Assembly: GCA_041664425.1 (NCBI GenBank)
Contig: JBAYKU010000001.1
Coordinates: 29,272 to 93,271 of the forward strand
Source: Minisyncoccota bacterium
Lineage (GTDB): Bacteria > Patescibacteriota > Minisyncoccia > Phycocordibacterales > XYD1-FULL-46-19
Direction: 5' to 3'
Length of the DNA stretch: 64,000 nucleotides
Notes under the pieces: model-generated
Databases searched by the model: none
Seen by the model: the letters and a program-made list of their open reading frames with translations, nothing else
What the model was told of the DNA's origin: nothing
Shown here: piece after piece, positions 4,001 to 61,718 of the stretch
Numbering within the stretch: position 1 is the first letter of the stretch
Layout: the number at the start of each line of letters is the position of its first letter
Program-made: the position numbers and the translations under genes

Positions 4001-5806
4001 ATGTTTATAAAAAATAAAAAAAATACTGCTGGGTATACCCTCGTAGAGGTTATCGTTTCCGTTGCGGTTTTTTTGGTGATAGCCACGGCGGTCTACGATG
4101 GTTATGTCAGTTTGCTTAGAATGATAACCAGTACTCGTTTAAAAACGGCGGCCATTGCTTTAGCTAACGAACAGCTCGAAATTGCCCATAATTTGCCATA
4201 TGATTCTATTGGGTTGGTTGATGGTATGCCAGCGGGTATTTTACCTCGTTTTGCCACCTCGACTCGCGACGGAGTACCTTTTTCTGTTCGTCTATCAATC
4301 CAAGATATTGATGATCTTTTTGATGGTCAGATTGGTGGCACCCCTAATGATTTAGCCCCTAATGACTACAAACGAGTTGAGGTGGAAATCTCCTGCTTAA
4401 CTTGTAAAAATTTTCAACCCTTTATCGCTTCTACTTTTATCGCCCCTAAAAATTTAGAGAACAATACTGGCAATGGAGCCCTCTTTGTTAAAGTGATTGA
4501 TGCTGACGGTTTGCCAATACCAGAAACTAACGTCCATATTGTTTTAGCTAGCACCACTAAAACAGTTGATATTTCAGAAACAACAAACAGTGTTGGAGTT
4601 TTTCAATTGGTAAATACTTATCCCGCTGATTTAGCATACAAAATATCGGTTTCTAAAACTGGTTATTCTAGTGCCAGGACCTACGCCATTGGTGAGGCTG
4701 GTATTGTTAACCCGGTTCAACCTAATGCTACGGTGGTGGCTGGGCAGGTAACCCAAGTAACTTTGGCTATAGATCGTTTGGCTAAAGTTAACATTAAAAC
4801 AATGAACCCTGTCTGTCAGGCTATTGGTAGTGTGCCAATAGTTTGGCGAGGAACAAAAATTTTAGGAACTGATCCTGATGTTTTTAAAATAGATAGCACT
4901 ATTTACACAGACAGTTCTGGTCTGAAAAATATTGTTGACGCTGAATGGGATACCTATACTCTTATTCCCAACATGTCTGGTTATGCCTTGGCTGGTTCAT
5001 TGCCTCTACAATCTTTAGCAGTGGCTCCTGGATCGAGCAATGACGTTTCAATGATTTTAGTGCCAGCTATTCCTCGGGGTCTCTTGGTCTCAGTCAAAGA
5101 TGCTGCGACTGGTCTACCTCTGGCTAATAGTGATGTTCATTTGTCTGGCGGAAGTTTTGATGACACTATGACGACTAATCGTGGTTTTTGGTCTCAGACA
5201 GATTGGTCAGGAGGAGAGGGTCAGATTTTATGGTCAGATATTAGTCAGTATGCCTCTAGTAGTGATATTGACATCATTAATCCGGTTGGCGATTTGAAGT
5301 TGGTTAAAACTGGTTCAGATTATGCTCCCTCAGGCTGGTTAGAGTCATCCGTTTTTAATACGGGCTCAGAAAATACCTCTTACTATCAAATTGGTTGGTT
5401 GCCGTTGAATCAGCCAGCATCAGCCGGCTATGGTGATGTTAGATTGCAGTTGGCGGTCAACAATGATCCAGCTACTACTACGTGGAATTTTACTGGCCCT
5501 GATGGTACGGCTGATACTTTTTATACTGCCACTACCACTGCTATCAGTTCAACCCTCAATAATTACCAGTATATTCGTTATAAAATTTTTCTACAGACTT
5601 TAGATCTGGCTGTTACTCCGGTGATTTCTGATATGCGTTTAACTTATAGTTCAGAGTGTTTACCTTTTGGTCAGGTTTATTTTGATGGTTTGCCGTCTGG
5701 AACTTATAATTTATCTGTTGGACGCACCGGCTACCAAACGGACACCCAAACTTTTGATTTAAATAGTAATTGGCAAAGCAAGGAAATTCAACTTTCACCA
5801 CAATGA
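4001..5806 (+). CDS. Large pseudopilin-like protein with an N-terminal prepilin (class III) signal
   Basis: Starts MFIKNKKNTAGYTLVEVIVSVAVFLV, i.e. the G|YTLVE prepilin cleavage/methylation motif, then a roughly 570-aa beta-rich C-terminal region. Start chosen at ATG 4001, just after the pilC stop. Confidence 0.6.
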   Translation: MFIKNKKNTAGYTLVEVIVSVAVFLVIATAVYDGYVSLLRMITSTRLKTAAIALANEQLEIAHNLPYDSIGLVDGMPAGILPRFATSTRDGVPFSVRLSIQDIDDLFDGQIGGTPNDLAPNDYKRVEVEISCLTCKNFQPFIASTFIAPKNLENNTGNGALFVKVIDADGLPIPETNVHIVLASTTKTVDISETTNSVGVFQLVNTYPADLAYKISVSKTGYSSARTYAIGEAGIVNPVQPNATVVAGQVTQVTLAIDRLAKVNIKTMNPVCQAIGSVPIVWRGTKILGTDPDVFKIDSTIYTDSSGLKNIVDAEWDTYTLIPNMSGYALAGSLPLQSLAVAPGSSNDVSMILVPAIPRGLLVSVKDAATGLPLANSDVHLSGGSFDDTMTTNRGFWSQTDWSGGEGQILWSDISQYASSSDIDIINPVGDLKLVKTGSDYAPSGWLESSVFNTGSENTSYYQIGWLPLNQPASAGYGDVRLQLAVNNDPATTTWNFTGPDGTADTFYTATTTAISSTLNNYQYIRYKIFLQTLDLAVTPVISDMRLTYSSECLPFGQVYFDGLPSGTYNLSVGRTGYQTDTQTFDLNSNWQSKEIQLSPQ

Positions 5807-20835: not shown

Positions 20836-20996
20836 AGGATAAGGTCTAAAAATTTTGCCAAATTTTTAAGTAGTTTACCCTTATTTTTAGGCGTTTTTGG
20901 CTGTTTGCTATTGACTTTTATACCTATTTATGCTAATATTGAAGATAGAGTTTTGTCAATTGGAGCCTCTTAGGAGGCAAGCGGAAGGATAGAAAA

Positions 20997-21554
20997 ATGA
21001 GTACAGCAATTAGTGTTTCAATCGCGGTCGTGTTGGCAGTTTTGTCGGTTGTCGTTTTTTTCTGGTTTAAGCTCCTTCCAGGGCTAGCTGTTGGTTTCCG
21101 GCAGTTTTTGATCAAAACGATAATTGCAGTAGCTGCCATGTTGGTGGTCCTTGCCATGAAACAAGGGGGAACTCCCGATTGGTATTGGCCGTTTATACAA
21201 CAAAGCCAGGTTTTCTATGTTATGACTGCCTGGCCAGAGACTTCTTCGGGTGACCATAATGCTACCGTAGTTTTTCAAAAGATGGCTGGTGGTCATCTAA
21301 AACCCAAGCAGATGATGGATGTCAGGCTTGAGGGAGATCTGCCCAAGCCTGGCCAACTGGTCATGTTTGGGAAGGGTAGTAAGCTGGTGATCGTGGGTAC
21401 TGTGGCCGAGTCTGTGACTCAGCCCGTGGCTCCGGTTGAACCAGTGGTAGCGCCAGCTTCGGATGCTGTTGTAGATCCGATTTCTACCCCCGCTGTAAAA
21501 CAGGAAAAATTCGCTCCCATCATCCCGTCGCGCAAGACGACGGCGAAGAAGTAG
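20997..21554 (+). CDS. Hypothetical membrane protein (two N-terminal TMs plus a Pro/Val-rich tail)
   Basis: 185-aa ORF. Promoter-like TTGACT-N17-TAATAT at 20904-20940. Confidence 0.5.
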   Translation: MSTAISVSIAVVLAVLSVVVFFWFKLLPGLAVGFRQFLIKTIIAVAAMLVVLAMKQGGTPDWYWPFIQQSQVFYVMTAWPETSSGDHNATVVFQKMAGGHLKPKQMMDVRLEGDLPKPGQLVMFGKGSKLVIVGTVAESVTQPVAPVEPVVAPASDAVVDPISTPAVKQEKFAPIIPSRKTTAKK

Positions 21555-21657
21555 CAAGTTTCCTCGCAGTTATCGTGCCTCGTGTCGCTCTAAGCGGTCA
21601 CGAGGCATTTGTTTTTGAAAAAAATTTCCTTGCTAGTCTTTTGGAGCGTGATAGAAT

Positions 21658-22989
21658 TTGGATAACTATATAAGTTTTAATTTTTTTAATATGAAAAAAG
21701 GTGATGCTTTTGATATGGCGAGAAAAATGAATACTGGCGATAGCCTCGATGTGACGGCTGAAGCGCCAGTGGCCGAAAAAAATAACGAGCAGGCTCTAGA
21801 TGAGTTGATGGATACTCCCGGCTTTGCTGAATTTTTAGCCAAACATCCTGAGGCTGGAGAATTGTCTGAGGCTGAAAACTTAGATCGAGTAGGCAATCTT
21901 CATGAAGCTTTTGGTAAGGTCAAGGAGACCAATAAGGAGTTGAATAGTTTTTTTAAGGACCAAGCCAAGGATTTAGGTTTAGAACTGTCAGAAGACGAGC
22001 TAAAGTTTGTTGGCGAACATATTGAAAATCTGGCAATAAACAATCCGGAAGAAATGGCGGGTTTAACAGAGACAATTAAAACCTACCGCGAAACCCCAGC
22101 CAAGATCAAAGCGCAAACGGCTGAATTGTCTAAGCACATGGAAACTTTTAATAATTATGGAGACCTGGTAGTAGAGAAGGCTAAACTAGAAGGATACGCC
22201 AATCTAACAAAGTTTGAAAAGGGTAAGGTCATGGGTTGGATTGGGGCCGTGGAACTTTTCTTTGCTGACAATAATACGGTTAGAGGCACTGTTCCCAATA
22301 AAGATGACAAGATGGCCGCTTTTGTTCATCGGGCGGCTCTCAATAAAGAGACTATTAATGAAATTCGCGACAAATACGGTTTGAAGCCAGAACAAATCAA
22401 AGAAAGGATTGAAAAGATAGAAGCTGATATTGAGCAAGCTCGGGGAGCAATGGGAAAGATGGATCAGTTACAGGAAGGGCTGACATCAGCCAAAGGAAAA
22501 ATGATGGCCGAGAACGTTTTACCCCTAGGACAAGTCAGAGAATTGCTCCAACAGAAATTATCAGAAAAAATGGCGGGGGCGGCTTTGAAAGAAGGTTCGC
22601 CTGATGACCGTTTGAAGGAATTGTCCAAGGTCCAAGAATATTTTGATCAAATGGCCAACTCAGATCTCGATCTATCTGCCGGTTTTGATAGTGGTGATTT
22701 TCAAAAAAGAGTAGATGATCTTATGGAACTTCAAGTGACCGATGGCATCTCTAAAGCTTTGGAATCAGCCAAGACTGATACTCTAACCAATTTTGAAAAA
22801 GGTTTTAAAAAATATCTTGATGGTTTGGAAAAATTAGGTACCAAGGACAAGGAGGAGGCCCAAAGATTTGTGGTTGAACAGATGTTTGAAAAAATCGGCG
22901 AATTGAATAAGTCTACTGAAAAATCAGACAAAGCTAAAGCGATCTTGCTTCGTCGGGTGGTCGCAAAGATACAAGCTAATAAAATTTAA
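21658..22989 (+). CDS. Hypothetical acidic alpha-helical protein (about 440 aa)
   Basis: Long ORF with no motif recognised. Possible alternative start at 21691. Promoter-like TTGCTA-N16-TAGAAT upstream. Confidence 0.5.
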   Translation: MDNYISFNFFNMKKGDAFDMARKMNTGDSLDVTAEAPVAEKNNEQALDELMDTPGFAEFLAKHPEAGELSEAENLDRVGNLHEAFGKVKETNKELNSFFKDQAKDLGLELSEDELKFVGEHIENLAINNPEEMAGLTETIKTYRETPAKIKAQTAELSKHMETFNNYGDLVVEKAKLEGYANLTKFEKGKVMGWIGAVELFFADNNTVRGTVPNKDDKMAAFVHRAALNKETINEIRDKYGLKPEQIKERIEKIEADIEQARGAMGKMDQLQEGLTSAKGKMMAENVLPLGQVRELLQQKLSEKMAGAALKEGSPDDRLKELSKVQEYFDQMANSDLDLSAGFDSGDFQKRVDDLMELQVTDGISKALESAKTDTLTNFEKGFKKYLDGLEKLGTKDKEEAQRFVVEQMFEKIGELNKSTEKSDKAKAILLRRVVAKIQANKI

Positions 22990-22994
22990 ATTTT

Positions 22995-23297
22995 ATGGAT
23001 ATCCAAACAGATTTAAGCCAGTTGGGAGATTTATTAGCGGCTGGTAAAAAAGATGAAGCCACCGCGCTGATCGATGCCTATATCAATCAAGATTTAAGTG
23101 ATGAGGAAAAAGGGACCGCTTATGTCGCTTGGGCCAAGGCTTATATGGATGCTTCTAATACTATTGACCAAAGTTACAGTGAGGCTTTGAAAGGCTGGCT
23201 GGAAACCCTGCGAGAGATTGATAAAGAGAGTGACGAGACAGTCAAAGAAGCTAAAGTAGCTTCACTTAAAAACGAAATTAAAAATTTTGGGGCCTAG
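22995..23297 (+). CDS. Hypothetical small acidic helical protein
   Basis: 100-aa ORF 5 nt downstream of the previous gene. Confidence 0.4.
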   Translation: MDIQTDLSQLGDLLAAGKKDEATALIDAYINQDLSDEEKGTAYVAWAKAYMDASNTIDQSYSEALKGWLETLREIDKESDETVKEAKVASLKNEIKNFGA

Positions 23298-23359
23298 AGT
23301 TTTCTAGTTGTGCACAGATTTCCTCGTTTCTGATAGTGTGTTGGTCTATAATTAAATTA

Positions 23360-23893
23360 ATGAAAAAATCTAATATCTTTGGGACTCGCCCGGTAGTGAA
23401 GTCTCGAAGAGCTTCTACTACCGGGTTTACTCTTATCGAGCTTTTAGTCGTGGTGGCGATCATCGGTCTTTTATTGGGGATTACTACTGACTATCTATCT
23501 AATGCTAGAAGTAAGGGCTCCGGAGCAGGGGTGAAGCAAAATTTAAATAGTCTGCGAACTGACTTGGCTTTGTGGCAGACCAACAATAATAATAGTAATT
23601 TACCTTGCAATATTGCCATTGCCGCCAACGGCACTAGTAGAGCTAATCAAATTTGGGCTCAAGCCAAGAGTCGGATCGGATCATCAGATTGGGGCTACTC
23701 GATCCACGGATGTGCCGCTGCTAATACCAACGTAACTGGCACCGGTTTTATTTTTGTGGCTAAATCTGGCACCGGCAAATATTGGTGTGTGGATAGTAAT
23801 AATGCCGGTAAGGAGATTACTACAATAGCTACTGCTGGTCTTACTGCTGGAGCATATACAAACGGCAGTACTCCATTCAAACTCTGCCCATAG
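23360..23893 (+). CDS. Type IV pilin (PilA-like) with a class III signal peptide
   Basis: ...STTG|FTLIELLVVVAIIGLL prepilin motif. C-terminal Cys pair (C...C) consistent with a D-region disulfide. Leader length uncertain. Confidence 0.75.
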   Translation: MKKSNIFGTRPVVKSRRASTTGFTLIELLVVVAIIGLLLGITTDYLSNARSKGSGAGVKQNLNSLRTDLALWQTNNNNSNLPCNIAIAANGTSRANQIWAQAKSRIGSSDWGYSIHGCAAANTNVTGTGFIFVAKSGTGKYWCVDSNNAGKEITTIATAGLTAGAYTNGSTPFKLCP

Positions 23894-24071
23894 CTAAAAT
23901 AAACACAAGGTCCAAGCAGCCCCCTAGGTTGACTTAATGTCTTTATTTGCTATTATTATCCCACGCAACGGCGTAGCTTTTTTGATGTTGACCGCAAGGT
24001 CTAGTCAACAAACAGGGGTTAAAAACCACTTTTTATTAAGTTAGTAGTTAATAATTAATAAGTAAAAACAT

Positions 24072-25265
<1,194 letters not shown>

Positions 25266-25276
25266 TTATTACATCT

Positions 25277-25642
25277 ATGACCGCAACGACCACTAAAAAA
25301 ACCAAAGCAAAGGTCAAAGCGACCGGAAGCGAGGAGACTTCCAAGCTTCGCATTCGGGTTTCGGCCTATGAAAACAAGATTCTTGACGCTAGTGTTAAGC
25401 AGATTGTTGATACGGCGTTGCGGTATGATGCAACGATCCTAGGTCCGATTCCATTGCCGACCGAGATCAAAAAATACACCGTCAATCGCTCAAGCTTTAT
25501 TGATAAAAATTCCCGTGAACAGTTCGAAATGCGTGTTCACAAGCGACTCGTGGATATCATGAGTCCGTCTCCGAAAATTATCGAGAGCCTGACCAATCTC
25601 AACTTGCCATCTGGCGTCAATATTGATGTCAAAATGATGTAA
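25277..25642 (+). CDS. rpsJ: 30S ribosomal protein S10 with an N-terminal extension of about 18 aa
   Basis: [13 protein letters not shown]... core. Confidence 0.85.
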
Positions 25643-25650
25643 GAAAACCC

Positions 25651-25690
25651 AAAACCCCGCCGGCCGAAAGGCTGGCGGGGTTTTGGTTTT
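25651..25690 (+). terminator. Rho-independent terminator immediately after rpsJ
   Basis: ccccgccggcc-gaaa-ggctggcgggg followed by ttttggtttt. Confidence 0.65.
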
Positions 25691-25774
25691 GTGCATAACT
25701 CTAGTTGTGATTATTTTTCTTTCTGTTATTACTTTAATTAGAAAATTGGTCTAACTGATAGTGGAGGAGGCAGA

Positions 25775-26029
25775 ATGACTATCTCAAGGCTATTGAGTTC
25801 CGATTTTGTTAGATGTCATTGCAAAGATGGAACAAGGCAATGTCTGTATTTGTCTCGATCTGCCGTCGTCGTAGATGGTGAACAAAATGAAGGCTGGTTT
25901 TGCAAAAACGGTAAGAATAAGGATGGTATTACTAGAGAAGGGGACATAACCGTTTGTGAGCTATTAGCCAGAGGCTTCAGTGGCGATTGTTACCAATTGA
26001 CAGTTACTGTCGGAAAAAAGAAGCTCTAA
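25775..26029 (+). CDS. Small Cys-rich (6 Cys) hypothetical protein inserted between rpsJ and rplC
   Basis: 84-aa ORF with strong SD GGAGGAGG 5 nt upstream. No signal peptide. Confidence 0.5.
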   Translation: MTISRLLSSDFVRCHCKDGTRQCLYLSRSAVVVDGEQNEGWFCKNGKNKDGITREGDITVCELLARGFSGDCYQLTVTVGKKKL

Positions 26030-26094
26030 GGACCCCTCACTTACATAGTCGAGGGGTCTGCGTGTTTATCTAGAGCCTTAGGAGTGGCTCAGAT

Positions 26095-26122
26095 TTGACT
26101 TTCTGCCCTTATCTGATAATAT
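26095..26122 (+). promoter_or_regulatory. Putative promoter TTGACT-N16-TAATAT for rplC and the downstream genes
   Basis: Hexamers with sigma70-like spacing. Confidence 0.4.
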
Positions 26123-26136
26123 GTTTCGAAGCTCGT

Positions 26137-26187
26137 AGGGGCTTTTTCAGCCCAAGGCTGATCGGCCTGGGGCCGAGTTTTTTTCTT
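26137..26187 (+). promoter_or_regulatory. Attenuator-like leader with alternative hairpins and a terminator-like stem plus U7 just upstream of rplC
   Basis: Three overlapping hairpins: gggct/agccc, cagcc/ggctg, and cggcc-tgg-ggccg followed by ttttttt. Confidence 0.35.
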
Positions 26188-26207
26188 AATATTGAAGCTA
26201 TATCTGT

Positions 26208-26843
26208 ATGAAGTTTATTTTAGGCACAAAACAACGAATGACTCAGGTTTTTGATGATAACGGCCGATCTCAGATTGGGACGGTAATTTCTGTTGCCCCA
26301 TCGATCGTCACTCAAATCAAAACTGCTGGTCAGGACAATACTAACTCGGTCCAGATCGGTTATGGCGAAAAACGAGCTAAAAATGCTGGTAAAGCCATGA
26401 TTGGCCATATTGCTCCTGCTCTCAAAGCTGCCGAAAAGGAAAATATTAGCTTCCAATTTTTGCGCGAATTCGCGACTGACAATACCGCTGACTACAAAGT
26501 CGGAGACGTTGTTGATTCCTCTATTTTCAATGAAGGTGAAGAAGTAACCGTGATCGGTACCAGCAAGGGTAAGGGTTTCCAGGGTGTCGTCAAACGCCAT
26601 GGTTTCCATGGAGGTCCACGTAGTCATGGTCAGAAGCACTCAGAGCGTGAGCCAGGTTCTATTGGTGTGGGTGGCGTTCAGCGCGTTTTCAAAGGTATGC
26701 GCATGGCTGGTCGCATGGGTAGTGATCGTGTCTCCACTAAATATGTCAAAATCATCAAAATCAACAAAGAGGCCAATGAAATTTTAATCCAAGGTGCTGT
26801 GCCTGGCCGTCCTGGTTCTTTGATCCAAATTATTGCTAAATAG
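26208..26843 (+). CDS. rplC: 50S ribosomal protein L3
   Basis: Conserved L3. Confidence 0.9.
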   Translation: MKFILGTKQRMTQVFDDNGRSQIGTVISVAPSIVTQIKTAGQDNTNSVQIGYGEKRAKNAGKAMIGHIAPALKAAEKENISFQFLREFATDNTADYKVGDVVDSSIFNEGEEVTVIGTSKGKGFQGVVKRHGFHGGPRSHGQKHSEREPGSIGVGGVQRVFKGMRMAGRMGSDRVSTKYVKIIKINKEANEILIQGAVPGRPGSLIQIIAK

Positions 26844-28682: not shown

Positions 28683-28690
28683 AAAACACA

Positions 28691-28718
28691 AAAACCCCTA
28701 AAAAGGGGTTTTTGTTTT
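28691..28718 (+). terminator. Terminator after rplB, inside the S10 cluster
   Basis: aacccc-taaaaa-ggggtt followed by tttgtttt. Confidence 0.6.
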
Positions 28719-28791: not shown

Positions 28792-28819
28792 TTGACAATG
28801 AGCCCTAATTTGCTAGGAT
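28792..28819 (+). promoter_or_regulatory. Putative promoter TTGACA-N16-TAGGAT upstream of rpsS
   Basis: Same hexamer pair as 33404-33432. Followed by a roughly 100-nt structured leader. Confidence 0.4.
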
Positions 28820-28919
28820 ATTAACCAGGCTCATATTGGGCTAAACCCTGACGGAATACGACACTAAAGTGTCGAAAAATCCCAGAGATTTTTATTCCAC
28901 TGGGTAAATTTTTGATTTT

Positions 28920-32579: not shown

Positions 32580-32580
32580 G

Positions 32581-32777
32581 TCGCTCGGATTAAAGAAATT
32601 TTCAGCTGACGCTTCATCCGACCAAAATTATAGTCGTCTCACGACGAAAAATGAAAAACTCCTCACAAACGCCTGCCAATCAGCAGGCGTTTGCTCGTCA
32701 AACAGTTTCATTTTTCTGCTCGACTCCTTAATTTTGGTCGGCTTCTCGCGATGCTGAAAATTTCTTTAATCCTCGCT
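32581..32777. repeat. 197-bp symmetric palindromic element made of conserved inverted blocks
   Basis: Centre at about 32680 (perfect hairpin aaacgcctgc-caatca-gcaggcgttt). Matching arm blocks: ggattaaagaaattttcagc, ccgaccaaaatta and aaaaatgaaa mirrored around the centre, separated by non-matching spacers. Confidence 0.6.
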
Positions 32778-32797
32778 TTGGTTGAAATGCTAGGCGA

Positions 32798-32858
32798 TAC
32801 CACTACGCCTGCCTGCGCAGGCAGGCAAGGGTTTTAAAATGTTTAAGCTTTCGTTCTC
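32798..32858. repeat. Second copy of the TACCACTACGC...AAGGGTTTTAAAATGTTTAAGCTTTCGTTC repeat, carrying the inserted palindrome CCTGCCTGCGCAGGCAGG
   Basis: Matches 20790-20835. Palindrome at 32809-32826. Confidence 0.5.
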
Positions 32859-32948
32859 TCAAATTTTCTCCAAACAAAAACCCAGTAGGACAGCTTGTGC
32901 TGACTACTGGGTGAACTCTTCGCGACAGATTTCTGTCGGAGGAGGTGG

Positions 32949-33278
32949 CTACTCTTGTTTGATAAATTCGATTCCATACTTCTTTTCCGTGGGTGATCCT
33001 TGGAAAATAGTAATGGAGTCAGTTACTATTGATTCCCGTTTTGTCGGTGGGACCCTTTCAAGCTTCTTTGCGTTAAAATCATCAATTGCCGCTGCAATCG
33101 ATAACATAAACGCAACTATAATCACTATGACAGAGATCGCCAGCGCTATCTCTAGATGACCAGTTTTTTTTCGAAGCTCCTCTGTTTTTTCCCAGAGCTC
33201 CTTTTTCTTCTGTCGCTCCTCTGCTGTTTCTTTCCAGGGGTCTTCTTTTTCTGTTTTCGACATTCTTCTCCCTTTCAA
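32949..33278 (-). CDS. Small membrane protein (charged N-terminus, one TM) encoded antisense within the spc operon gap
   Basis: 109-aa ORF with SD AAGGGAGAAG upstream and a consensus promoter on the minus strand. Confidence 0.55.
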   Translation of the reverse strand: MKGRRMSKTEKEDPWKETAEERQKKKELWEKTEELRKKTGHLEIALAISVIVIIVAFMLSIAAAIDDFNAKKLERVPPTKRESIVTDSITIFQGSPTEKKYGIEFIKQE

Positions 33279-33301
33279 AAGCAGAACCTTAGCTCTGCCG
33301 G

Positions 33302-33353
33302 TTGACTATCCATTTCTACCTAATATTATACACCTAATCGTATAAAAAGTCAA
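33302..33353. promoter_or_regulatory. Back-to-back overlapping promoters: plus strand TTGACT-N16-TATTAT (33302-33329) and minus strand TTGACT-N17-TATAAT (33325-33353) sharing the -10 region
   Basis: Hexamers read directly on both strands. The minus promoter drives the ORF at 33278. Confidence 0.4.
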
Positions 33354-33403
33354 TAGATAACAATCTTCATGTAACACTTTTGTGTCTTTAGAGGCCTAAA
33401 TCG

Positions 33404-33432
33404 TTGACATTAAGGCCTCTTCTTGATAGGAT
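33404..33432 (+). promoter_or_regulatory. Putative promoter TTGACA-N17-TAGGAT for rpsZ and the downstream spc genes
   Basis: Same hexamers as the rpsS promoter. Followed by a structured leader (33456-33540) with hairpins cccggtggaata/tattccacgggg and atggcgc/gcgccat. Confidence 0.4.
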
Positions 33433-33641
33433 AGCACCAGCTCGTTTGAGCCCCGCCCGGTGGAATATGGCGCTTCTAGGCGCCATAAAATCGCTAGGTC
33501 AAACGATTTTATTCCACGGGGTAAAATATTTACTTGCCCGCCTAAATTTCCCTCGTGTAAATGAGGTAAACAGAGGGAGGACAAAATCATTTTATTAGTC
33601 AGGTATATCAATTCTACCGAGGGAAACTTTGGTGGGTAAAC

Positions 33642-48334: not shown

Positions 48335-48354
48335 TGTTTTTAATACGGGGATGA

Positions 48355-48741
48355 TCGGCTTTGATAGGAAGTCTCATTCTTCTAGTGTATGCCGAGGATT
48401 CTAACTGTCTCGTAAAATCTGTTAGAAAAATGCAAATGCCAACAATACTGGCAAAAGCGTAGTAAGTCCTTACTTCGCTCCGGCTTTCGCTCTAGCTTAG
48501 CTAGACCCATTGTCGGTGTTTACTCCAACGTTTCTTCCGGCTGGTTGGCAGTAAACATTTTCGCAAGTCGGAATCGTGCGCCAGAGGTGCTCCGCTCTGG
48601 TGACCTAAAATAATTGGAGATCGATTAAAAAGTTTTCTGTTCGTCTTATAGCTTTTTGATTTAAACAAATTAGACGATCTACGCATATAGAGTCTATTAG
48701 AGTGCCTTTTTACACGGCGGTTCGATTCCGCCCATCTCCAC
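48355..48741 (+). ncRNA. ssrA: tmRNA (ssrA)
   Basis: 5' end GGGGATGATCGGCTTTGATAGGAAGTC and 3' end GGCGGTTCGATTCCGCCCATCTCCAC (tRNA-like T-arm and acceptor with a G3-U wobble). An internal tag ORF ends ...APAFALA-stop. CCA is not encoded. Confidence 0.8.
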
Positions 48742-48756
48742 AAAGACAAAAACTCA

Positions 48757-54432: not shown

Positions 54433-54707
54433 CTGCAAAACTTTTTACTCGGCGCACCTGTTTTAGGGTACGGATTTCCCTGGCCCTATGGAATAAATTT
54501 GTTCAAAAACTTTCTTAATTTCAAAACCCAGACCCAAGCCCAACCATTTTGAAATTAAGAAAGTTTTTTTGACAAATTTCGCTTCGCTATTCCATAGGGT
54601 GAACTTAGAAAATCCTGTCCGCCAGCTGGCGGATCGGCCATGCCTGTACAGGCAGGTCGACAGCCTCACGACCCCCTAAAACAGGTGCGCCTTCGACAAG
54701 TTTGCAG
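54433..54707. mobile_element. MITE-like non-autonomous element with imperfect terminal inverted repeats of about 34 bp and an internal long hairpin
   Basis: TIRs ctgcaaaactttttactcggcgcacctgttttaggg / ccctaaaacaggtgcgccttcgacaagtttgcag. Inner hairpin 54484-54599. Shares CCTGTACAGGCAGG and ACCTGTTTTAGG motifs with other copies. Confidence 0.5.
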
Positions 54708-57447: not shown

Positions 57448-57521
57448 GCGCCTGTAGCTCAGCTGGTTAGAGCACGGAGCTTATACCTCCGCGGTCCCTG
57501 GTTCGAATCCAGGCGGGCGCA
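57448..57521 (+). tRNA. tRNA-Ile with anticodon UAU
   Basis: Cloverleaf: acceptor gcgcctg/cgggcgc, D-arm gctc...gagc, anticodon stem cggag/ctccg with loop cTTATAc (anticodon TAT), T-arm cctgg-ttcgaat-ccagg. No encoded CCA. Confidence 0.75.
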
Positions 57522-61626: not shown

Positions 61627-61718
61627 GGAGAGGTGGCTGAGTGGCCGAAAGCGCCTCACTGCTAACGAGGTAGGGGTTTTAAAGCCCCTCGAGGGTTCGA
61701 ATCCCTCCCTCTCCGCCA
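61627..61718 (+). tRNA. tRNA-Ser (anticodon GCU) with long variable arm and encoded CCA
   Basis: Acceptor ggagagg/cctctcc, anticodon loop cTGCTAa, variable arm gtaggggttttaaagcccctc, T-arm gaggg-ttcgaat-ccctc, then gCCA. Confidence 0.85.

Follow-up and report, generated by a model that had tools for sequence, protein, structure and literature searches.

The interval between rpsJ and rplC in this ribosomal-protein cluster is probably a boundary between transcription units, at which one unit ends and the next is headed by a promoter and a 5′-terminal hairpin that form a cassette, which is shared with other units and would serve either as an mRNA stabilizer or as the site of a common regulator. 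The stretch of DNA we analyzed (hereafter the window; 64,000 nt) belongs to an uncultured groundwater-type bacterium of the Paceibacterota, within the candidate phyla radiation (CPR), and its L3 protein is 100% identical to an NCBI L3 named "Candidatus Paceibacterota bacterium". The cluster runs in blocks, in the order fusA, cargo, tuf-rpsJ, cargo, rplC-rplB, rpsS-rplE, cargo, rpsN and onward, and the breaks house unrelated cargo genes, IS200-type transposase genes, and MITE-like elements. The spacer considered here, between rpsJ and rplC, measures 565 bp, and its features are collected in Table 1.

Table 1. Features at the rpsJ-rplC boundary and two sister modules, in window coordinates
Feature	Position	Strand	Remarks
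Promoter of the tuf-rpsJ unit	23929-23956		Start of unit
rpsJ (S10)	25277-25642	+	Pfam PF00338, E = 4.9e-30; last gene of the tuf-rpsJ unit
Intrinsic terminator of the tuf-rpsJ unit	25649-25692	+	17-bp stem, GAAA loop, U tract
Shine-Dalgarno sequence GGAGGAGG	25763-25770	+	4 nt before the ORF84 ATG
ORF84	25775-26029	+	Orphan 84-aa Cys-rich ORF in the boundary slot; probably coding, judged from sequence
Hairpin after ORF84	26030-26059	+	Doubtful terminator; segment z = -4.2; weak U tract
rplC promoter	26095-26122	+	-35 TTGACT 26095-26100; TG 26114-26115; -10 TAATAT 26117-26122
P1	26129-26144	+	AAGCUC-GUAG-GGGCUU, then U-rich sequence; dG -6.4, z = -3.2
P2, accessory hairpin	26147-26161	+	UCAGCC-CAA-GGCUGA; dG -7.4; window clade and L143 only
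P3	26162-26184	+	UCGGCC-UGG-GGCCGA and U7; dG -9.7; terminator anatomy; tandem copy of P2
rplC (L3)	26208-26843	+	Pfam PF00297; no Shine-Dalgarno sequence; heads the rplC-rplD-rplW-rplB unit
rpsS promoter and P1-type hairpin (sister module)	28792-28842	+	S19 by Pfam; hairpin GGCUC-AUAUU-GGGCU at 28828-28842
rpsN promoter and P1-type hairpin (sister module)	33404-33452	+	S14 by Pfam; hairpin AGCUC-GUUU-GAGCC at 33439-33452

The hairpin that follows rpsJ (25649-25686; 17 bp, 12 GC) runs into a U tract, and its fold is far more stable than expected (z = -7.3). A terminator sits directly 3′ of rpsJ in all 8 lineages compared (the window, L081, L084, L087, L088, L090, L174, and L175), with stem sequences that differ and carry compensating changes between lineages, such that the element combines the GC-rich stem-loop, U tract, location at a gene end, and conserved position that define an intrinsic terminator. 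On the other side of the spacer, TTGACT-N16-TAATAT with a TG dinucleotide makes up a sigma-70-type extended -10 promoter, for which the expected layout is TTGACa at -35, a spacer of 16-17 nt, TGn, and TAnnnT at -10, and a consensus promoter of this kind precedes rplC in 8 of 8 lineages, in register in the alignment. The strict pattern TTGAC-N13-15-TGnTAnnnT is found 5 times in the window vs. 0.38 expected (13-fold), and all 5 matches lie on the coding strand of the ribosomal-protein cluster, each at the head of a gene block. The first-pass annotation had proposed a strong terminator after rpsJ, a new promoter before rplC, and the transcriptional uncoupling of the 2 genes, and all of these proposals are supported by the comparison.

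Among relatives retrieved via the L3 protein, the rpsJ-rplC gap spans 350-1054 bp in every case, and every one of them has a terminator after rpsJ and a promoter before rplC, so the S10 operon is broken at this point across the clade. What lies in between differs among relatives—i.e. nothing, a pilin-like gene, a 155-aa or 183-aa minus-strand gene, a 144-aa membrane protein, or a 68-aa ORF—and similarity elsewhere to the gap of the window is confined to gap positions 3-48 (the terminator) and 453-560 (the promoter and leader). Searching genome contigs with L3 returned distant relatives only (≤51% identity, mostly Bacteroidota); on these contigs, rpsJ-rplC gaps of 100-400 bp are common. We propose that the strong terminator would end the tuf-rpsJ unit, that the near-consensus extended -10 promoter would restart transcription for rplC-rplD-rplW-rplB, and that the space behind the terminator may act as a tolerated insertion slot, presently filled by an orphan, Cys-rich gene of 84 aa that bears a Shine-Dalgarno (SD) sequence and is probably weakly expressed.

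The small ORF in this slot was described in the first-pass annotation as Cys-rich, with a strong SD, and an ORF with an SD is more than chance would be expected to produce here. ORF84 contains 6 Cys residues (7.1% vs. 0.55% in the long ORFs of the window), and only 0.3-0.6% of random 404-nt sequences of the same composition contain an ORF of ≥84 aa together with an SD-like core (P ~0.003-0.006), while the actual SD is an 8-mer. Of the 69 genes in the window, only 9 have an SD-like core, and none of the ribosomal-protein genes is among them; other cargo genes of the cluster carry an SD as well, unlike the core genes. The codon score of ORF84 is -0.03 per codon, compared with 0.34 ± 0.14 for genes and -0.76 ± 0.33 off frame, and its frame scores best of the 6 and above 99.7% of off-frame windows. 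The chance estimate, the frame score, and the SDs of other cargo genes, together with the presence of called genes in the same slot in 5 other lineages, speak against the possibility that ORF84 is not a gene and that the ~400 bp between terminator and promoter are a decaying insert that keeps a frame open by chance. We regard this possibility as somewhat unlikely, yet it would account for a codon score 2.7 sd below that of the window genes, for the lack of any promoter-like site in 25692-25775 just behind a strong terminator, which leaves ORF84 with no promoter of its own, and for a single-sequence AlphaFold (AF2) model of low confidence (pLDDT 55) that is too poor for a fold search.

It would also account for the lack of homologs wherever these were sought. 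A word-indexed search of 5.8e9 proteins returned only ORF84 itself, and HMMER against 1.8e9 representatives found no true homolog; 5 long repeat proteins among the HMMER matches were rejected as spurious, since their scores add up many weak repeat matches of 20 bits that involve no Cys. ORF84 matches no family in Pfam or PHROG, including those of small Cys-rich proteins, shows no DNA or protein similarity in the relatives, and an exact-sequence look-up of contigs found nothing on record. The homologs that the first-pass annotation suggested looking for thus did not turn up, and, judged from these searches, ORF84 is real as an ORF but an orphan present in this genome only. The "own terminator" that it had been assigned is doubtful: the hairpin is a good one, yet the sequence behind it, UGCGUGUUUAU, makes a poor U tract, and scanning for terminators gave no call there.

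Downstream of the rplC promoter, the first element of the leader is P1, which starts at the predicted +1 (~26129), 7 nt after the -10 box, as judged from promoter geometry. P1 is kept in the rplC leaders of relatives down to ~50% L3 identity and is the only conserved hairpin of the leader. In most taxa the leader is minimal, with P1 followed by ~15 U-rich nt and then the AUG. P1 and the U run together resemble a weak terminator, a point against the role of P1 favored below. The same cassette of promoter and P1 heads the rpsS and rpsN units of the window and, in relatives, also the rpmC unit and at least 1 rRNA operon.

A gene-blind metagenome scan for the promoter and P1 returned 83 sites, 80 of which could be assessed, and 74 of these lie directly upstream of rplC, rpsS, rpsN, or rpmC. 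By downstream gene, there are 51 S19, 14 L3, 7 S14, and 2 L29 sites, 1 rRNA site upstream of a 16S rRNA gene (L122), and 5 HTH sites that represent one unrelated gene family; these counts are not independent events, because the scan pattern fixed the stem and many matches are phylogenetically related. Across 70 unique modules, P1 begins 6-8 nt after the -10 box, and a purine precedes AGCUC in 90% of them. Within this AGCUC class, the stem sequence is conserved, the loop is free, and no two-sided compensatory change is seen. The one internal pair that varies is U-A or U.G at all 9 sites not selected by the pattern, and in the pattern-selected sites the variable R is A in 44 and G in 26.

A hairpin at this position is not always P1. 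For example, hairpins of other sequence take its place before rplC in L088, rpsS in L089, and rpsN in L112, and all tuf leaders have a hairpin there in which ACGC/GCGU alternates with UGCG/CGCA. More generally, a hairpin of -4 kcal/mol or lower lies just downstream of 79% of unselected promoters, compared with 26-44% of control segments (P = 0.011). We found no description of the promoter-P1 module in the literature on CPR promoters and ribosomal-protein leaders, and among the known ribosomal-protein leaders the sole one listed in front of rplC is an archaeal candidate.

We favor an explanation in which the predicted transcript starts precisely with P1 and continues into U-rich, SD-less sequence; as a 5′-terminal RNA stem-loop, P1 would shield abundant mRNAs from 5′-end-dependent decay and keep the U-rich initiation region unobstructed. 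[quoted passage not shown] The stabilizing stem-loops of Escherichia coli ompA and papA and of Bacillus subtilis aprE (PMC3997798) share with P1 a short length, a highly expressed mRNA, and a predicted 5′ end with 0-2 unpaired nt, a distance that holds for P1 only if transcription starts 7 ± 1 nt after the -10 box. These stem-loops are gene-specific and not conserved in sequence, whereas P1 has the same stem in several operons and in distant relatives and, unlike them, always precedes a U-rich tract and an SD-less start. From the sequence comparison, a conserved stem with a free loop and no two-sided compensation fits a sequence-specific site, in RNA or in palindromic DNA, better than a purely structural stabilizer.

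Such a site could be recognized by a single trans factor that coordinates the rplC, rpsS, rpmC, rpsN, and rRNA units, either as an RNA hairpin or as a DNA palindrome, AGCTC-N4-GAGCT, forming an operator over the start site. The retention of the stem with a free loop in 4 gene classes and 1 rRNA promoter is consistent with this, as is the near exclusiveness of the motif to ribosome-component genes among assessable matches of the gene-blind scan, and the 2 half-sites (5 bp each, 4 bp apart, at +1 to +14) have typical operator geometry. Even so, we consider a trans factor unlikely: some lineages have an unrelated hairpin at the same position and tuf units have another one, no candidate regulator was found, and other ribosomal-protein operons are absent from the scan results. 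A DNA operator, in particular, is at odds with the sole internal variation, a change from U-A to U.G on one arm, which is RNA-like and asymmetric for a palindrome. The promoter spacer was also inspected for a third half-site of such an operator, an idea that was rejected since the site is inconsistent across taxa.

The rRNA site invites comparison with the boxB-boxA leaders of rRNA operons. In L122, a boxA-like CGCUCUUUGAAAAC comes after the promoter and P1, ~100 nt upstream of the 16S rRNA, and P1 therefore occupies a boxB-like position. The ribosomal-protein leaders differ in having no boxA, and the loops of P1 vary. P1 is not itself a boxA, as its loops are mostly purine-first and boxA is found only in the rRNA leader of L122. 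We know of no Nus-factor dependence of P1.

What follows P1 in the window is far less widespread. The first-pass annotation had noted a stem and U7 just before rplC, and these are present, the P3 stem at 26162-26176 and the U7 at 26178-26184, 24 nt upstream of the gene. It had also described 3 mutually exclusive hairpins, which the folding contradicts: P1, P2, and P3 are adjacent and compatible, and they occur together in both the MFE and the centroid structures. The leader as a whole has a fold z-score of only -1.3 to -2.2, and in each of its 2 competing folds the U run is preceded by a hairpin. Because P3 forms in every competitive fold, the leader contains no antiterminator.

Apart from a distant contig, L143, the relatives that carry P2-P3 are exclusively the closest ones, with L3 identities of ~90% or higher. 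It is absent from L087, L090, and L084, with L3 proteins 83, 89, and 75% identical to that of the window, which keep rplD behind the same promoter, and also from L174, L149, and L175, which keep the promoter, P1, and rplD. Two of these, L174 and L175, are close relatives of L143 in which P2-P3 was sought for covariation. Between the window and L143, P2-P3 is identical at 27 of 29 positions while the L3 proteins are 51% identical, and P3 of L143 (UCAGCC/GGCUGA) carries one compensatory change from G-C to A-U. This near-identity and the compensatory change suggest, at the sequence level, that P2-P3 is under selection rather than neutral junk, though covariation support is minimal because there are only 2 sequence variants. 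P2-P3 occurs as one copy in the window and likewise across 633 kb of related DNA, and a dispersed repeat or MITE was therefore rejected. The neighboring rpsS and rpsN leaders, for their part, carry a multi-copy TIR element (a MITE-like insertion). Rfam searches of the whole window at the gathering threshold, and 3 local searches by E-value, gave only terminator-like noise, and no family reaches significance in 25600-26260.

The claim that first drew attention to this locus, that the leader is an analog of the L4 attenuator of E. coli, is its weakest part. In that reading, L4 in excess, or else a different product of the rplC-rplB unit, would bind the leader and stimulate termination at P3 and U7 before rplC, as L4 and NusA do in the E. 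coli S10 leader. The resemblance is real in outline: both leaders belong to an rplD-containing operon and have a terminator-like hairpin and U run after another hairpin, with P2 next to P3 paralleling HD/HE (PMC3616713), and a terminator before essential genes invites regulation. The P2-P3 of L143, with its compensatory pair, points the same way. However, the E. coli leader (L4-responsive, with NusA; helices HA-HG) has ~170 nt and 5 hairpins, and the one described here 56 nt and 3 simple hairpins; the former precedes rpsJ, the first gene of its operon (PMC3616713), and the latter follows rpsJ and precedes rplC. The HG helix covers the start codon, whereas no hairpin in the window overlaps the AUG, and the E. 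coli leader has no sequence or structure match in the window. The known L4 leader is, moreover, confined to Gammaproteobacteria (PMC3616713).

Distribution also weighs against an attenuator. An autogenous leader element is expected wherever the operon and its regulator are conserved, and P2-P3 is missing from the lineages named above, which keep rplD; P1 is conserved but common to 4 different units. Because P2-P3 is lineage-restricted and there is no antiterminator alternative, an L4-type attenuator is not supported for the rplC leader, in which P2-P3 is a patchy add-on; that P1 is common to the rpsS, rpsN, and rpmC units and 1 rRNA promoter argues against an L4-specific site. With few variants to show covariation and no Rfam match, we regard autogenous attenuation as very unlikely.

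A further reading, which we consider the most improbable of those raised here, is that the promoter and P1-P2-P3-U7 produce a discrete small RNA of ~56 nt (26129-26184), with rplC expressed by read-through only. It draws on a strong promoter followed within 56 nt by a terminator-like hairpin and U7, and on 3 compact hairpins that total -24 kcal/mol. It would leave rplC-rplB with no other promoter after the strong rpsJ terminator, in relatives P1 leads directly to the AUG, and the element is single-copy, patchy in distribution, and has no Rfam match. Under the boundary explanation, P2-P3 and U7 would instead have been inserted, in certain lineages only, into a leader that is otherwise minimal (~33 nt), and their intrinsic-terminator anatomy would probably cause some constitutive premature termination.

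The arrangement described here has a parallel in the internal promoters of the S10-spc-alpha cluster of B. subtilis—i.e. the order of ribosomal-protein genes is kept while transcription units are unlike those of E. coli. It differs in that a terminator closes each block and transcription restarts from a cassette of promoter and hairpin that is nearly identical from block to block. Changes in operon structure among bacterial ribosomal-protein clusters have been noted before (PMC3616713). A second parallel, in logic only, is the 5′TOP system of eukaryotes, where many ribosomal-protein mRNAs likewise have a common cis element at their very 5′ end; the 5′TOP element is an oligopyrimidine tract, whereas P1 is a bacterial hairpin with no known trans factor or sign of translational control.

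This resemblance bears on an idea that we advance as speculation and regard as improbable, namely that ribosome synthesis in this group of Paceibacterota is under regulon-wide control with P1 as the cis element, one factor reading the hairpin or the +1 DNA palindrome on the rplC, rpsS, rpmC, and rpsN units and on rRNA operons. If true, such control would take the place of the autogenous feedback that E. coli exerts on one operon at a time, would have left its genomic footprint in the division of the cluster into blocks headed by cassettes, and would resemble the 5′TOP system in its logic.

CPR bacteria cannot be grown alone, and to our knowledge almost nothing is known about their gene regulation. 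Here, the most conserved gene cluster is organized unlike the textbook S10 and spc operons, with breaks in which orphan genes and mobile elements have landed. The promoter-P1 signature could mark transcription starts for annotators of these genomes, and the shared hairpin offers a testable handle on how the expression of ribosomal proteins, and perhaps of rRNA, may be coordinated without Shine-Dalgarno sequences.

The window comes from a candidate-phyla-radiation (CPR) bacterium. A protein that NCBI lists under "Candidatus Paceibacterota bacterium" matches the window's L3 at 100% identity, after which the nearest L3 relatives belong to Vogelbacteria MAGs. Here, 565 bp separate rpsJ from rplC. 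A terminator hairpin begins 7 nt past the rpsJ stop, and the fold of this segment beats those of shuffled sequences by 7.3 sd. While a generic promoter scan of the window shows no excess (9 sites vs 9.6 in shuffles), the strict consensus TTGAC-N13-15-TGnTAnnnT, which the rplC promoter carries, occurs 5 times in 64 kb versus 0.38 expected, a count reached in 0 of 300 simulations. Every one of the five is a coding-strand site within 20.9–33.4 kb and heads a gene block (the non-ribosomal "cargo" block after fusA, tuf, rplC, rpsS, and rpsN). We are highly confident of the boundary and promoter taken together, and read the region as a unit boundary: first a terminator, next a slot for cargo, and last a cassette of promoter plus P1, the first of three leader hairpins (P1–P3). 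The terminator, the ORF with its Shine–Dalgarno (SD) sequence, the promoter, and the stem with U7 listed in the first-pass annotation are all real in the sequence, and that account is largely right except for hairpin exclusivity and the ORF's own terminator.

Features of the cluster breaks (window positions, unless a relative's or metagenome contig's locus, L, is named)
Feature	Position	Details
fusA–tuf cargo block	20911-23893	four non-ribosomal genes (185, 443, 100, 185 aa)
Cargo-block promoter	20911-20939	consensus
tuf leader	23957-24071	ACGC-N4-GCGU
tuf	24072-25265	
rpsJ	25277-25642	
rpsJ terminator	25649-25692	17-bp stem with 12 GC, GAAA loop, U tract (terminator scan)
SD of ORF84	25763-25770	GGAGGAGG
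ORF84	25775-26029	84 codons
Hairpin after ORF84	26030-26059	
rplC promoter	26095-26122	TTGACT-N16-TAATAT, TG upstream of -10
P1	26129-26144	AAGCUC GUAG GGGCUU, -6.4 kcal/mol
P2	26147-26161	UCAGCC CAA GGCUGA, -7.4 kcal/mol
P3	26162-26176	UCGGCC UGG GGCCGA, -9.7 kcal/mol
U7	26178-26184	24 nt 5' of rplC AUG
rplC	26208-26843	then rplD, rplW, rplB
Terminator hairpin, rplB end	28688-28715	
rpsS module promoter	28792-28819	then GGCUC-AUAUU-GGGCU
rplE–rpsN gap	32580-33403	overlapping ORFs 32839-33159 (plus strand), 32949-33278 (minus strand)
rpsN module promoter	33404-33432	then AGCUC-GUUU-GAGCC
CCCNGTGGAATA...TATTCCACNGGG element	832-880, 28846-28904, 33456-33521, 54484-54599	MITE-like palindrome
tmRNA and two tRNA genes	48347-48743, 57448-57521, 61627-61715	Rfam (tmRNA 132 bits)
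CCCGTTAGAGG...CCTCTAACGGG element	L084/L086 2880-3000; L090 about 1500-1620; L162; L131	second MITE-like family
Y1 transposase regions	L081-L083 5645-6316 and 65-745; L091 2802-3473	IS200/IS605 type
CNNUUCUCCU...AGGAGAA hairpin	L132 about 4965-5200; L135 432-700; L125; L158; L165	rpsN leaders
rRNA promoter with P1	L122 709-858	minus strand

Relatives were gathered through L3 homologs and their contigs fetched (identities are to the window's L3). Every lineage has a large rpsJ–rplC gap, with contents that differ: 350 bp without a gene in L081-83 (91%), 894 bp with a minus-strand 183-aa gene in L090 (89%), about 800 bp with a minus-strand 155-aa gene in L087 (83%), 1054 bp with a pilin-like N_methyl gene in L084-86 (75%), and 804 bp with no gene called in L088-89 (68%). 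L174 and L175, chosen as relatives of the L143 L3 (76% and 71% identical to it), have gaps of about 600 bp with a 144-aa membrane-protein gene and about 490 bp with a 68-aa ORF. Each of these loci has a terminator after rpsJ, with stems varying in compensating fashion, and the same promoter ahead of rplC. Using blastn, the window gap matches the fetched loci in two stretches only, the terminator at gap positions 3-48 and the promoter with the leader at 453-560, and the ORF-bearing 400 bp match none. Judged from these sequences, the claimed uncoupling of rpsJ from rplC thus appears to be fixed throughout the clade, with variable cargo filling the slot that terminator and promoter enclose. The break itself is not unusual, since rpsJ–rplC gaps of 100–400 bp are common in Bacteroidota and other CPR groups.

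The window's cargo in this slot, the Cys-rich ORF84, is probably an orphan gene, albeit an unproven one. Of random 404-nt sequences of the same composition, 0.3–0.6% contain an ORF this long (84 aa or more) preceded by as little as a 4-nt SD core, and the Cys content of ORF84 is 7.1% versus 0.55% across the window's long ORFs. Its codon score (-0.03 per codon) is intermediate between genes (0.34 ± 0.14) and off-frame sequence (-0.76 ± 0.33), with its own frame the best of all six. The homolog search proposed earlier found nothing credible: among 5.8 billion proteins ORF84 matches itself alone, and a full HMMER search against 1.84 billion representatives adds five long repeat proteins judged spurious because their scores sum many ~20-bit repeat matches lacking the cysteines. 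Pfam and PHROGs give no match, and the AlphaFold single-sequence model is poor (pLDDT 55). The promoter scan finds no promoter-like site between the rpsJ terminator and ORF84; of the terminator attributed to the ORF, a good hairpin exists, but its U tract is poor and the terminator scan does not call it, making it weak. An SD-like core precedes only 9 of the window's 69 long ORFs and no r-protein gene; sequence upstream of the r-protein genes is A/U-rich and SD-less, and inserted cargo genes tend toward strong SDs. The strong SDs of ORF84 and of the first cargo gene after fusA, in an SD-poor genome, fit a foreign or young origin of both.

Other breaks also carry cargo or mobile elements. The fourth fusA–tuf cargo gene encodes a type IV pilin-like N_methyl protein, and pilin-like genes also lie between fusA and tuf in relatives and, in L084-86, in the rpsJ–rplC slot. 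The rplE–rpsN gap is another slot ahead of a promoter+P1 module, its ORFs without Pfam or PHROG matches. The CCCNGTGGAATA...TATTCCACNGGG element has about four copies in the window (8 matches to its terminal inverted repeats vs 0.8 expected). Two lie directly 3' of P1 in the rpsS and rpsN leaders and share a Y-shaped fold whose inner stem covaries between them; L089 and L098 also carry the element in their rpsS leaders. In relatives, Y1 transposase genes occupy the rplB–rpsS break and the region before tuf. Between P1 and rpsN-rpsH, several taxa share the long CNNUUCUCCU...AGGAGAA hairpin, possibly a leader related to S8 or S14, or else a stem that sequesters the SD.

Promoter and P1 form a shared module. 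A gene-blind scan of metagenome contigs with TTGAC-N13-15-TGnTArTAT-N6-8-AGCTC-N4-GRGCT returns 83 sites on 81 stretches, with S19 (rpsS) as first downstream gene at 51, L3 at 14, S14 at 7, and L29 (rpmC) at 2. Five precede one small-HTH-protein family and are probably unrelated, three contigs are too short to tell, and one site (L122) lies ~100 nt before 16S rRNA, where boxA-like CGCUCUUUGAAAAC / CGCTCTTTGAAAAC follows the module, with a further promoter-like site immediately upstream. The window has three modules only (rplC, rpsS, rpsN), and the other CPR groups examined (Kaiserbacteria, Magasanikbacteria) have none. Among 70 unique modules, the P1 stem starts 6–8 nt past the -10 and directly follows a purine in 90%, a purine opens the loop in 87% with the remainder free, and the nine positions 3' of P1 are U-rich. 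Transcription usually starts 7 nt from the -10, which places the predicted start on the initial A of AAGCUC and predicts a 5'-terminal P1 with 0–2 unpaired nucleotides.

P1 probably acts as an RNA 5' hairpin, as several comparisons suggest. At sites not selected by pattern, its variable internal pair is U-A in 4, U.G in 5, and mismatched in 0, although the terminal pair is looser. Unrelated hairpins replace it in L088 rplC, L089 rpsS, and L112 and L165 rpsN, and all tuf promoters precede a different covarying 5' hairpin (ACGC/GCGU vs UGCG/CGCA) and then a U run. This tuf hairpin shows compensatory changes on both sides between lineages (the window, L081, L084, L087, L088, L121, L167, and L173 compared). 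Hairpins of -4 kcal/mol or better fall within the first 30 transcribed nt at 79% of 34 unselected promoters versus 26–44% of control segments (Mann–Whitney p = 0.011). It is unlikely that a common regulator reads P1, as RNA or as a palindromic operator (AGCTC-N4-GAGCT) at +1. The AGCUC stem is conserved beyond what structure alone explains while the loop is free, which would allow for a specific binder of either kind; the U-A/U.G pairing, substitute hairpins, tuf covariation, and hairpin excess favor an RNA-level 5' hairpin. Tentatively, and by analogy, the most likely role of the RNA hairpin would be to stabilize mRNAs, shielding them from 5'-end-dependent decay, and it would also keep the U-rich, SD-less initiation region single-stranded. 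Such 5'-terminal stem-loops, which P1 resembles given its predicted start, stabilize ompA, papA, and aprE mRNAs, and RppH requires at least 2 unpaired 5' nucleotides (PMC3997798).

Alignment of the rplC leaders shows conservation of the promoter and P1 alone. L087 has a minimal leader (P1, GUUUUUGACUUUAAUGUG, AUG), and in more distant relatives, at about 50% L3 identity, P1 is followed by ~15 U-rich nt and AUG. L084-86 and L090 add a ~110-nt insertion ending exactly at ATG, with CCCGTTAGAGG...CCTCTAACGGG inverted repeats at its termini. This family, absent from the window, sits exactly at the ATGA starts of rplC, rpsS, and rpmC in relatives (L162 and L131 for the last two genes), regenerating the ATG; L087 and L139 show empty sites. 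P2-P3 with U7 occurs only in the window, its nearest relatives (L081-83, L091, L092, L098, L110, L140), and the distant L143 (51% L3 identity); relatives closer to the one group or the other lack it. P2-P3 remains a single-copy element when 633 kb of related DNA are searched along with the window. The three hairpins, proposed to be mutually exclusive, are adjacent and coexist in MFE and centroid folds. P2 and P3 repeat the same hairpin in tandem and can alternatively pair with each other into a single long one (the MFE in L143, whose P3 differs by a compensatory change of one G-C pair to A-U). Both arrangements leave a hairpin directly against the U run, so there is no antiterminator state. 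P3 with U7 has terminator anatomy, yet a regulated attenuator there is highly doubtful: no alternative fold frees the U run, a conserved autoregulatory site would be distributed differently, and Rfam has no match for the leader. The suggested L4-attenuator analogy is weakly founded; the E. coli L4 leader lies upstream of rpsJ rather than rplC, has five hairpins (one over the start codon) rather than three, and is confined to Gammaproteobacteria (PMC3616713). P2-P3 with U7 is instead a lineage-restricted addition, probably a constitutive terminator for a fraction of transcripts.

Each ingredient belongs to a known kind of feature: fragmented operons, internal promoters, hairpins at 5' ends, and terminators in leaders. 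We found no description of the promoter+P1 cassette in Rfam 15 or in full-text literature searches, and a published list of r-leader candidates has only one archaeal candidate upstream of rplC (PMC7247131). One promoter-and-hairpin cassette heading several S10/spc blocks and an rRNA operon in a CPR lineage is apparently undescribed, and this shared module, together with the mosaic nature of the cluster breaks, is the most useful outcome of the analysis.
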